From an uncultured Poribacteria bacterium (lineage in GTDB: Bacteria > Poribacteria > WGA-4E > WGA-3G), in the NCBI GenBank assembly GCA_951813565.1, contig OX638351.1:4256001-4320000 (forward strand): a stretch of 64,000 bases of DNA, written 5' to 3'. Position numbers and translations under genes: made by a program. Shown here in pieces: positions 39,794-42,351 of this stretch; positions within the stretch are counted from its first letter, which is position 1, and each line of letters opens with the position of its first letter. Under the pieces are notes generated by a model. That model was not told the DNA's origin, did not search any database, and worked only from the letters and a program-made list of their open reading frames with translations.

Positions 39794-40652
39794 GTAGGAG
39801 GGGTTTTAAACCCCGATAAACGCTTGGAGTTCGTAGTCGTGCAATTCATGGCACCTCTTACATTTCTTGTAGGAGCGCTTTGTAAGCGCGATGCATAGTA
39901 GCCAGCGCGCTCCGCGTGCTGGCCGTCGCGCCTTTTGTGGAAGCACTTTAGTAAGAAGCGCGCGATATATTGTTGCTGAAAACGGTTCACACATCAGTAT
40001 AAATTCGTTTTCAATAATACAGAGTGATAAAGTTTGTAGGTTGGGTTGGGTAGAGTTTGCGAAACCCATAAATCAACGCTATGAATGCCTTTATGGCATT
40101 CAGCCAAATCAACGCAGCATGCGCGTATGGCATGCTGCGGGCGTCAATTTAAGGATTTATTTCAGGTTTCACACATTTTAACCCAAACAACACCGGAACC
40201 CAATTGTAGGGGCGGGTCTCCGGTGAATGCCAAAAGGCATTCATACCCGGTGAATGACTAAAGACGAATGCGCTTGGTAGAATACGCTTTTGGTATTCTA
40301 CATGATTCGCCATGGTTCATACCGTTGATTTCTTGATTTGGTGCCCGCCAGTTGTTTGAATACATCAGCAATGGCGGGGCACAGAGACCCCACCAAATGC
40401 CAAAAAGCGCATTTGGCGTTGATTTGGCCCTACAAGGTGTGCCAGGATTTATCCCCTAAATTGACACCTATGGGGGTAGAGTTTGCGAAACCCAACCTAC
40501 TTATAACTAATGTAAGAGGCGCAATGAATTGCGCGACTACAAACGCTGATATTCTTAAAATCCGCGAAATCTGTGTAATCCGTATCATCTGTGATTCAGA
40601 CAACAAAATCCAACACAAAGAGGTTGACGGCACACGGAGTGTGCCTACTACT
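39794..40652. repeat. mosaic of REP-like palindromes, an IS231-like MITE (40067-40472) and micro-elements
   Basis: 19-bp direct repeat at 40048-40066 / 40474-40492; GTTGATTTG elements at 40070, 40105, 40222-40340 and 40392. Confidence 0.85.
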
Positions 40653-40719
40653 TTTAATCGCACATCTAAATCGGTTATTTATAAACTACCGTATTAAAAC
40701 CAATTATTGAGGTATAAAA

Positions 40720-41736
40720 ATGTTTCAAAACCTATCGATTCAATCTATTGGGGTTGCACTGTTAATAGCAGCGCTTATGATTCCATTAGCTTTAGCGGAG
40801 AATGAAGTGGAAAAACCGAAAGAACTTAAAGTGGGCATGATAGCCCCAGATTTTACGTTGAAAGATGAAACCGGGACCGAACGTAGTCTCAGTGAATTCT
40901 TAGGAAAGAAAAGCGTTGTCCTCGCCTTTTATCCGAAAGACTTTACCGGTGGCTGAACAGCCGAACTCCAGTCGCTCCGGGATAAATTGAGCGACATAAA
41001 AGAAACCGAAACTGTCTTGTTCGGTGTCAGTGTAGACAACGTTGAGTCGCATAAAAAATTTAAAGAACAAGAAAAGTTCGGATTTTCATTGTTGGCGGAT
41101 ACTGAATTTGAGGTAAGCAAGCAGTACAGCGGGGTTATGGAAAGGTTTAACGCTTCAAAACGGACGACTTTCATTATTGATAAGGCAGGATATATCCGTG
41201 CAATTGATAAAAAAGTCAAAGTGCAGACGCATGGTGAAGATGTTGTAAAACTGCTTAAGAAAGCACTGCCAAAAATAGAAGTTGGGCAGCCTGCTCCCGA
41301 TTTTATCGCCAGGGATGGCGCAGGAAAAACACACCAACTCAGCAAGTTACAGGACAAAAAGAACGTGGTTTTAGCGTTTTATCCGCGTGATTTTGGGCGT
41401 GGCTGAACGGCTGAAGTTTGCTCGCTCCGTGATGAGTCGAGTAGTTTTGCTGAACAGGATGTCCAGGTCTTTGGGATTACTATCAATGATGCTGAGTCAC
41501 ATCAGAAATTTTCGAAAGAAAATGAACTGAATTTTCCACTGCTGATGGATACAGAAAAGAATCTTGCCTTACTCTTTGGTGCTGCTGCAGAAAAATCCGA
41601 CAAACGTTTCAAGCGCTTGACGGTAATCATTGACAAAGCAGGAAAAATCGTGAAAATTGACAAAGAGGTCAATCCAAGCACACACGGGTCAGATTTAGTG
41701 GATTTCTTCAAAACCGTTGATGCGTCAAAAGAATAA
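40720..41736 (+). CDS. secreted tandem peroxiredoxin (BCP/PrxQ-like), probable selenoprotein with two Sec
   Basis: ORFs 40720, 40987 and 41545 share one frame; UGA at 40954-40956 (FYPKDFTGG-U-TAEL) and 41404-41406 (FYPRDFGRG-U-TAEVC) fall at the peroxidatic Cys positions; 338 aa. Confidence 0.88.
40971..40995 (+). promoter_or_regulatory. candidate SECIS hairpin 1
   Basis: GTCGCTC-cgggataaatt-GAGCGAC, starting 14 nt after the UGA. Confidence 0.65.
41420..41442 (+). promoter_or_regulatory. candidate SECIS hairpin 2
   Basis: gCTCGCTC-cgtgat-GAG(t)CGAGt, same offset after the UGA, with a bulged U. Confidence 0.6.
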
Positions 41737-41739
41737 TTG

Positions 41740-42351
41740 ATGACACGTAAGACTTTCTCGGCATTTCCTGCTTGGGTTGCTTTGGGAACTTCTGTAATTT
41801 TTAGTCCGTTTATTGTACCGATTGTAACGGCTATATTTGTTGTCCAAAAACATGCGACTACAAATCAAGAAGTGATGCTTTGGCTTGCAATTGTGGCAAC
41901 ATTTGTTACGGTGCTACCGATATTGGCAATAGTTTTGCTATTTCGGTTTTCGAAGGTGAGTAATTTACATCTCCGTGCCAAAGAAGAACGACTAATACCG
42001 CTCTGCTTCACGTTAGTCAGCATGATTATAGGAACCATAATCCTTTACAAGATTGGGGCAAGTTCCAAGATCATTTGGGCGTGCATAGCTTATATTGTAA
42101 ATAGCGTTGTGTTTTCTGCTATTACACCACTATGGAAAATTAGTTTTCATACCAGTGTTACAACCGGCTGTATAATGGTCTTAGTGTTCCTTGTAAATTC
42201 TAATTTAGTGTGGCTTTTTCTTCTTGTTCCACTTATAGCATGGGCAAGGGTTTACCGTGAACGTCACACACCTCTTCAAACGGTCATCGGCACGCTGTTA
42301 GCAATTGTTAACACGATGCTTGTTTTTTATTTTCTACCGATTTCTGGATAA
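41740..42351 (+). CDS. multi-pass membrane protein, PAP2-like
   Basis: Hydrophobic helices; WKISFH and WARVYRERHT motifs. Confidence 0.7.
   Translation: MTRKTFSAFPAWVALGTSVIFSPFIVPIVTAIFVVQKHATTNQEVMLWLAIVATFVTVLPILAIVLLFRFSKVSNLHLRAKEERLIPLCFTLVSMIIGTIILYKIGASSKIIWACIAYIVNSVVFSAITPLWKISFHTSVTTGCIMVLVFLVNSNLVWLFLLVPLIAWARVYRERHTPLQTVIGTLLAIVNTMLVFYFLPISG

Follow-up and report, generated by a model that had tools for sequence, protein, structure and literature searches.

A tandem peroxiredoxin gene of Poribacteria with two putative selenocysteine codons, each followed by a hairpin

We analysed a window of 64,000 nucleotides (nt) from an uncultured, sponge-associated Poribacteria bacterium (assembly GCA_951813565.1, contig OX638351.1, positions 4,256,001 to 4,320,000), in which a tandem peroxiredoxin (Prx) gene of the BCP/PrxQ type with two candidate selenocysteine (Sec, U) codons is located at 40720..41736. 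All positions refer to this window and all features to its + strand unless stated otherwise. The gene is a single frame of 338 codons followed by TAA, whose only internal stops are two TGA codons, namely at 40954..40956 (codon 79) and at 41404..41406 (codon 229). A mechanical list of open reading frames (ORFs) splits it into three pieces (40720-40956, 40987-41406 and 41545-41736) that share one frame, such that the respective claim of an initial annotation, made from the sequence alone, holds. A Shine-Dalgarno-like GAGG (40709..40712) can be read 7 nt upstream of the ATG, and an in-frame TGA four codons before the ATG closes the frame upstream. The two TGA codons are embedded in the motifs PKDFTGG-U-TAELQSLRD (site 1) and PRDFGRG-U-TAEVCSLRD (site 2). 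Given its frame, its Pfam, NCBIfam and PDB matches and its orthologues, we consider it very likely that 40720-41736 is one real, conserved gene in which both UGAs are decoded as Sec.

Pfam identifies two AhpC-TSA/Redoxin stretches in the translated frame (E 9.4e-70; PF00578 with 232.7 bits), i.e., residues 38-161 in domain 1 and a Redoxin stretch at residues 188-321 in domain 2. The domains themselves span residues 35-185 (40822..41274) and 186-338 (41275..41733) and are 45% identical to each other (E 2e-43). The best NCBIfam model is that of the BCP-type thiol peroxidases (NF006960; 187 bits summed over two stretches, cut-off 140), and the cut-off of the PrxU model NF040737 is not reached by the tandem protein (111.2 vs. 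270 bits). Archaeal and mycobacterial BCP/AhpE proteins are the closest solved structures. The top PDB match is Bcp1 (3drn; 2.8e-24), which aligns to residues 36-182, and the Cys of 2ywn is aligned to residue 79. Both TGAs are thus placed at the column of the peroxidatic Cys, with the motifs that the initial annotation described. An AlphaFold2 model based on a 49-sequence alignment reaches a pLDDT of 90.4 and a pTM of 0.84, and the latter value implies that the domains have a defined position relative to each other. The model further shows a low-confidence helix at residues 2-27 and disorder at residues 22-32. Foldseek relates it to single-domain BCP/AhpE chains (TM 0.84-0.91 on target), and a two-domain chain is absent among the matches listed.

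To assess conservation, we used the best 80 of 220 relatives, all of them Poribacteria or "uncultured bacterium", as well as a six-frame search of 40 relatives (24 genomes of the same genus and 16 of the same order). In total, 120 loci were compared, with some genomes present twice (under a G handle and as a named record). Of the 40 genomes, 23/24 from the same genus and 13/16 from the same order have a tandem orthologue that contains exactly two TGAs internally. The remaining 3/16, which belong to one genus, encode a single-domain form with one TGA. Over all loci, 116/120 show both TGAs and zero other stops. They represent 93 distinct nucleotide sequences and reach down to about 50% protein identity. 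The four exceptions are L057 (an extra internal TAA), L058 (Ser at site 1, TGA at site 2) and two single-domain forms. All 37 tandem loci of one set have TGA at site 1, and for site 2 the same is true of all 40 sequences of an alignment that includes the single-domain relatives.

We also investigated which other residues occur at the two Sec columns. Within the 120 loci, neither Sec site is occupied by Cys or another sense codon in any tandem orthologue with both domains, apart from L058 (G014:C108), which is a paralogue of the tandem. We inspected ten near-full-length database proteins (50-78% identity). Site 1 is Trp in all of them, and site 2 is Trp in nine and Gly in P0016, the domain 2 of which is degenerate. 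No close Cys orthologue (>50% identity) was found, the full-length database matches at 50-78% identity carrying W. These Trp residues probably reflect code-4 gene calling of TGA on short contigs. Cys at the Sec columns, to which the initial annotation had pointed along with the conservation of UGA, is seen in distant homologues only, i.e., at both columns of P0030 (a metagenomic tandem protein of 375 aa with 33% identity) and in 2ywn at residue 79. Natural variants that have lost one site are L058 (Ser at site 1) as well as P0016 and P0022 (Gly at the Sec column of a degenerate domain 2). P0019 is likewise listed among the tandem variants with one active site lost.

The active site of domain 1 is complete (P72, T76, U79 and R148), with no variation at T76, residue 79 or R148 among the 49 aligned sequences. 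In domain 2, residue 229 (C/U), C234 and R299 are invariant in the same alignment. Here, P222, U229 and R299 are present, and Gly226 occupies the position of the active-site Thr. Cys234 (TGC, 41419..41421), five residues after Sec229, is the probable resolving Cys of PrxQ type, a residue that is optional in BCPs. It is found in 92/93 distinct orthologues, in 90 of them encoded by TGC. The respective position of domain 1 holds Gln84 in this genome and Q, C, R, K, N, S or E across the orthologues, such that U-x-x-x-x-C occurs in 27/93. The observation that domain 2 has U-x-x-x-x-C and lacks Thr, and that domain 1 lacks a resolving Cys, is therefore true for this genome. Both losses are genome- or genus-specific, because order-level relatives show the full PKDFTGGU motif in domain 2 and 27/93 orthologues have the Cys in domain 1. 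Gly replaces the domain 2 Thr in 71/93 distinct orthologues (DFGRGU, DFGRSU, DFGTGU), and Thr is retained in other families.

Next, we evaluated whether the genome, which is a single contig of 5.43 Mb, encodes the Sec machinery expected by the initial annotation. All four components were found above their curated cut-offs. The tRNA-Sec gene (selC) scores 78.1 bits (cut-off 47) and is reported by ARAGORN as tRNA-SeC with anticodon TCA. It is adjoined by selB (344 bits). selA is found with 607 bits and selD with 372 bits, the latter having itself one in-frame TGA. TGA is also an ordinary stop in this genome, where it terminates 440/2265 long ORFs, and even the tandem Prx gene itself ends with TGA in 11/93 distinct orthologues. 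The sequence data thus suggest that Sec would be inserted at both UGAs.

Both TGAs are followed by a hairpin that resembles a selenocysteine insertion sequence (SECIS). Hairpin 1 (40971..40995) begins 14 nt after its TGA and consists of a 7-bp stem (40971-40977/40989-40995) with an 11-nt loop, CGGGAUAAAUU, at -10.6 kcal/mol. Hairpin 2 (41419..41443) starts 12-13 nt after its TGA. Its stem of 9-10 bp with a one-base bulge (41419-41427/41434-41443) closes a 6-nt loop CGUGAU, with an energy of -15.8 kcal/mol in a 60-nt fold, and its 5' arm includes the codon of Cys234. In both hairpins, the apical loop starts 21 nt after UGA and reads C-G-(G/U), and TCGCTCCG is found at the same offset (alignment columns 19-26). 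The initial annotation had described a hairpin with this shared sequence after each TGA, which we can reproduce.

Single-sequence folds do not separate these hairpins from dinucleotide shuffles (see below), so that support beyond chance comes from the comparison of relatives. For site 2, 94.6% of the cells over 40 sequences keep the pairing, compared to 32.8-46.2% with slid partners. For site 1, the pairing is kept in 82.7% of the cells over 37 sequences (21.6-49.8% with slid partners). RNAalifold recovers the site 2 helix unaided as a consensus of 9 pairs. Therein, 2 sequences have U-A in place of C-G at pair 18-38, and pair 21-34 occurs as G-U (26 sequences), A-U (11) or U-A (3).

Furthermore, we studied the synonymous variation among the 93 orthologues, measured as the fraction of same-residue pairs with different codons. 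Its average for the whole gene is 0.46, and the 7-codon mean is as low as 0.11 at codons 85-91 and 235-241, precisely where the hairpins are located. The residues in both troughs, of which the one at site 2 covers codons 234-242, are 92-100% conserved. A third dip at codons 22-31 was discounted, since its poorly conserved columns bias the measure to close relatives. The codon choice itself is biased. Leu at +7 is encoded by CTC in 92/92 Leu-bearing sequences at both sites, while CTC makes up 17% of the genome-wide Leu codons and 18% of the other Leu codons in these genes. TCG, the rarest Ser codon genome-wide (9%), encodes the Ser at +6 in 85/93 (site 1) and 64/93 (site 2) sequences. Concerning stability, the 36 nt from +12 fold with a mean of -9.4 (site 1) and -9.8 kcal/mol (site 2), compared to -4.5 +/- 2.7 kcal/mol for background windows of the gene. 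The 36 nt after the terminating TGA of the 11/93 orthologues show a mean of -5.6 kcal/mol.

We also compared both hairpins with the consensus model of bacterial SECIS (bSECIS) elements given in Fig. 2A of PMC13188914. According to the figure legend, a bSECIS has a 4-16 bp stem and a 3-9 nt loop with a G in its first two positions, a UGA-to-loop distance of 16-37 nt and a minimum free energy <= -7.5. Site 2 agrees with the whole model (loop CGUGAU with G at position 2, 21 nt spacing, -15.8 kcal/mol). For site 1, the 7-bp stem, the G at loop position 2, the distance of 21 nt and the energy of -10.6 kcal/mol fit, but the 11-nt loop is longer than 9 nt. An Rfam scan of 40600-41900 (E up to 1) yielded zero matches, which is uninformative for bacterial SECIS elements. 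The DNA contig depth in run X3 climbs from about 41 to 588 over 41405-41471, i.e., the region of the site 2 hairpin. This is as expected for a constrained stretch that is near-identical in many strains or paralogues of the sample.

To relate the two domains, we used a tree of 42 domain sequences. All domain 1 copies form one clade (99/99), and all domain 2 copies form another one together with the single-domain forms (97/95). Both clades are sisters (97/86), and one long-branch Cys protein is placed uncertainly beside the domain 2 clade. The simplest reading is that a gene already containing Sec was duplicated along with its hairpin. We also considered P0030 as a Cys form of the same fusion. 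This was rejected, because its two domains are mutually closest (100/99) and thus go back to an independent duplication.

The initial annotation had further proposed a lineage-specific SECIS shape, which is not supported. TCGCTCCG is common to both sites because the domains are paralogues and it encodes their shared Ser-Leu-Arg; site 2 fits the general model, and the hairpins of other candidates in the genome differ. These candidates stem from a genome-wide scan for in-frame TGAs that are flanked by coding signal on either side, which is a crude coding-score filter that missed selD and does not give the size of the selenoproteome. It reported 198 candidates, mostly adjacent genes in one frame or repeats. 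About 18/198, including the two studied here, have redox or metal motifs, among them FdhA, three heavy-metal-associated (HMA) domains with GMT-U-xx-C, several UxxC proteins with thioredoxin fold and a MoeB/ThiF-like protein. The hairpins of the ~16 other credible candidates are unrelated in sequence and mostly have loops of 3-6 nt. Only the 11-nt loop of site 1 is, by comparison of the available sequences, a peculiarity of the genus. The remaining families of the order can fold either site into one and the same hairpin with a 6-nt loop. The Glu codon that had provided the 3' arm of site 1 became Lys or Asn in this genus, and the pairing moved to the Leu-Ser-Asp/Glu codons further on, which results in the 11-nt loop.

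Some results of the scan are listed here in their own right. The GMT-U-xx-C motifs of heavy-metal-associated type (C1:4462776(-), 4462206(-) and 360117(-)) have TGA at the first Cys and are followed by hairpins of -12.5 to -20.3 kcal/mol. We regard the respective proteins as candidate Sec-containing metal-binding domains. Eight further in-frame-TGA candidates from the same crude scan are C1:4232556(-), 2853863(+), 1718165(-), 3198568(-), 660557(-), 5150303(+), 5151710(+) and 4467097(+). They comprise a MoeB/ThiF-like PS-U-xEAGVLG protein, two DESC-U paralogues, a U-GSC protein, FdhA (NCSRA-U-H) and three UxxC Prx-like genes, two of which are adjacent. In addition, a repeated gene-like element with in-frame TGA is present in 14 copies, e.g., at C1:58444(+), 918493(+) and 5137312(+). 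The 25-residue context around its TGA is alike in all copies save for one or two residues, so it is probably an insertion sequence or repeat family rather than a selenoprotein.

Residues 1-26 (40720..40797) are hydrophobic and end with A-L-A before Glu27. They probably form a signal peptide of the general secretory (Sec) type or an N-terminal anchor. The hydrophobic N-terminus is kept in the orthologues, which mostly have small residues at -3/-1. It is plausible from this segment that the protein is exported or membrane-anchored. From the exported two-Sec two-domain peroxidase of the initial annotation, we thus retain the two domains and the two UGAs, while export is only plausible from what the N-terminal sequence looks like.

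The Prx stop codon is immediately followed by a gene for a membrane protein of 204 aa (41737..42351), which is multi-pass and PAP2-superfamily-like. Its Atlas matches are PAP2 clusters at 0.97, and its Pfam PAP2 match is below the cut-off (E 0.011). The gene is directly downstream of Prx in 67/80 related loci and in 0/13 loci at 61-66% identity. It is probably co-transcribed with the Prx gene. Two of these outgroup loci have unrelated housekeeping genes next to Prx (shikimate pathway, EF-P, GNAT and PhyH). Neither this locus nor the two outgroup loci revealed a neighbour of the DsbD, CcdA or thioredoxin type. A reductant cannot be named from this context, because the downstream gene is only PAP2-like and genus-specific and the outgroup neighbours are unrelated.

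Two poly-A "transcriptomic" metagenome libraries (X1, X2) each provide one short exact contig within the gene, i.e., 40865-41015, which bridges TGA 1, and 41084-41237. With a depth of about 4, they are a weak hint that the gene is transcribed, and the uncovered parts are uninformative. Upstream of the gene, 1 kb of non-coding DNA harbours a short repeat similar to repetitive extragenic palindromes (REP-like) at 40509-40546 with an inverted partner at 39829-39871. Its 26-nt core has 68 exact copies in the genome and 174 with <=2 mismatches. At this locus, the repeat and its partner are separated by 630 nt and make up an inverted pair of 43 nt. The k-mer depth of the repeat in a DNA run is ~300x that of the flanks.

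Taken together, we hold with high probability that the gene encodes a tandem BCP/PrxQ thiol peroxidase with Sec as the peroxidatic residue of either domain, inserted via two hairpin-driven events, and that both domains originate from one duplication. In detail, SelB with Sec-tRNA(Sec) would be recruited twice, once per coding-region hairpin, such that Sec is incorporated at each UGA and translation proceeds until it terminates at TAA. The N-terminal hydrophobic segment would probably take the protein across the inner membrane or anchor it therein. Each domain could then reduce peroxide, whereby the selenolate is converted to selenenic acid. In domain 2, Cys234 would resolve the selenenic acid to an intramolecular selenenylsulfide as in PrxQ-type enzymes, which may subsequently be reduced by a thioredoxin-fold partner. 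Domain 1, which has no resolving Cys in this genome, would work as a 1-Cys-type site and depend on a thiol from outside or possibly on domain 2. A single duplication of an already Sec-containing gene in an ancestor of these Poribacteria would have given rise to both domains along with their hairpins.

Several observations weigh against this interpretation. Selenium at either site is deduced from sequence, and two successive Sec insertions should be inefficient and likely yield truncated products. The single-sequence folds are no better than dinucleotide shuffles for both hairpin 1 (z -1.59; 13/200 fold as well) and hairpin 2 (z -0.66; 49/200). The covariation is thin and comes from related sequences, i.e., site 2 shows only 2 doubly changed pairs, a number reached by 59/500 shuffles. 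For site 1, RNAalifold reports no consensus over all 37 sequences, because the genus form with its 11-nt loop and the outgroup form with its 6-nt loop use different 3' arms. The loop of hairpin 1 also exceeds the 3-9 nt of the published model. The missing Thr in the PxxxTxxC motif of domain 2 would make its peroxidase activity less certain in this genus. Among the relatives, one of the 24 same-genus genomes (G009) is without the gene, and L057 has its internal TAA. Concerning export, the n-region is without Lys or Arg and the assignment relies on the appearance of the N-terminus, and for transcription the two RNA contigs are short, of low depth and possibly due to DNA carry-over.

We also considered what else could explain the locus. 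In a broken gene, or in three small genes, the TGAs would be real stops, and the products would be the 78-, 139- and 63-residue ORFs or none. The three pieces from standard ORF listing, the extra TAA in L057 and the non-significant single-sequence folds agree with that. However, both TGAs are kept in 116/120 loci without any other stop or frameshift and with strong conservation after each TGA, the RNA-level constraint is found exactly after both TGAs, and the second piece would require a TTG start 10 codons past the TGA. In addition, the pieces would cut a thioredoxin fold mid-domain, and this in both domains, which leaves a broken gene extremely improbable. Alternatively, a suppressor tRNA or near-cognate decoding could assign UGA to a standard amino acid (Trp, Gly or Cys), either throughout the genome or locally. 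This is what the W that public gene callers put at both sites of orthologues would suggest, and the Sec reading builds on sequence. Still, we rate such a reassignment as highly improbable. UGA is a regular terminator of long ORFs in this genome and of the gene itself in some orthologues, and the full selA/selB/selC/selD set is present. Furthermore, the UGAs are located exactly at the catalytic Cys columns, where Trp or Gly would kill the enzyme, and are both followed by hairpins under purifying selection. The W of the databases is presumably just what code-4 calling on short contigs produces.

Other explanations accept Sec and differ in its role. Possibly, only one site is decoded efficiently and the gene acts as a selenium-dependent switch, i.e., translation would stop at codon 79 or 229 at low selenium and provide the full protein when selenium suffices, with domain 2 of this genus serving domain 1 as a redox or resolving module that has no peroxidatic function. 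The Gly at the Thr position of domain 2 in this genus, combined with a nearly invariant Cys234 (92/93), would be in line with such a role, and so would the freely varying resolving position of domain 1 and the variants with one site lost (L058; P0016, P0022). The confident model of a fixed two-domain arrangement would also permit cross-talk between the domains. We nevertheless consider the switch rather unlikely, given that order-level relatives retain PKDFTGGU in domain 2, that Arg299 is invariant as for a true peroxidatic site, and that both hairpins are equally constrained. Another option is a self-contained two-selenium relay within a fixed pseudo-dimer. Here, the selenenic acid of domain 1, which lacks a resolving Cys, would be recycled by Sec229/Cys234 via an inter-domain Se-Se or Se-S bond, and the low pKa of Sec would have made the active-site Thr, universal otherwise, dispensable in domain 2. 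We deem this quite unlikely. If true, it would constitute a new peroxiredoxin catalytic cycle, evolved for the peroxide defence of the cell envelope in sponge symbionts.

Under the favoured interpretation, i.e., a tandem thiol peroxidase with Sec at both peroxidatic positions, the gene would provide a bacterial example, conserved and phylum-wide, of a protein whose synthesis requires two SECIS-directed Sec insertions that are independent of each other. This would be a natural system to ask how efficiently bacterial ribosomes decode two UGAs per message. Site 1 also illustrates the evolution of an RNA signal in overlap with conserved codons, its loop having gone from 6 to 11 nt upon the exchange of Glu by Lys/Asn in one genus. 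If the protein is indeed located in the envelope, as its N-terminus suggests, Poribacteria would invest selenium in envelope redox defence. On the practical side, Poribacteria proteomes would be systematically mis-annotated at such genes, with entries either cut at TGA or carrying Trp, and sponge metaproteomics based on standard gene calls will miss such proteins. Our knowledge of the Sec insertion mechanism is unchanged by these results. What they add is codon-level evidence for both SECIS elements, the hairpin shift at site 1, the duplication of domain plus SECIS, the variants with one site lost and the Thr loss in domain 2.

Finally, we relate the tandem to known systems. PrxU of Eubacterium acidaminophilum (NCBIfam NF040737) is reportedly a one-domain peroxiredoxin with a peroxidatic Sec. 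It shares the position of Sec with the tandem but has one domain and represents a different Prx subfamily, of which the tandem is not a member. P0030 is similar to the tandem in its signal-peptide-like N-terminus and its two BCP domains, which both have CxxxxC with a Cys aligned to the Sec column. Unlike the tandem, it has no UGA. It is 33% identical, and its fusion arose independently.

A family of Sec-containing Prx (COG1225/Bcp, PF00578, TxxU, one Sec) has been known from marine and other bacteria since 2005, and such BCP-type Prx are, according to the available parts of both sources, an abundant marine selenoprotein family (PMC1088965, Tables 1-3; PMC13188914, Table 1). With this family, the tandem shares the BCP/PrxQ fold and subfamily, Sec after PxxxTxx, a coding-region hairpin after UGA and widespread Cys homologues. 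The single-domain relatives L059 and L060 from Poribacteria are plain members of the one-Sec family, and domain 2 of the tandem groups with them. In contrast to the family, the tandem comprises two fused domains, two Sec codons, two hairpins and an export-like N-terminus, and in this genus it lacks the Thr in domain 2 and the resolving Cys in domain 1.

We found no published description of a two-Sec tandem peroxiredoxin in the open literature, a scope outside of which lie subscription journals as well as the full table and supplements of the 2026 review PMC13188914. In the accessible portion of that review, Prx (PF00578, TxxU) is entered with one Sec, and only a small subset of its 119 families/subfamilies has 2-3 Sec. 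The literature on Poribacteria selenoproteins, as far as its accessible parts go, concerns [NiFeSe] hydrogenases or sponge microbiomes and does not describe a tandem. The enzyme type is therefore known, and its doubled two-selenium form seems to be undescribed. The bacterial proteins with 2-3 Sec that the accessible portion of PMC13188914 names (Table 1) include a Prx-like thiol:disulfide oxidoreductase with UxxU, MbdU, the HUGP/GUXX-star fusion and arsenite methyltransferase fusions. Like these, the tandem would have more than one SECIS-directed UGA in a single bacterial gene. As far as they are described there, however, they place two Sec in one motif or fuse unlike domains, whereas the tandem appears to be one catalytic domain that was duplicated, each copy with its own SECIS.

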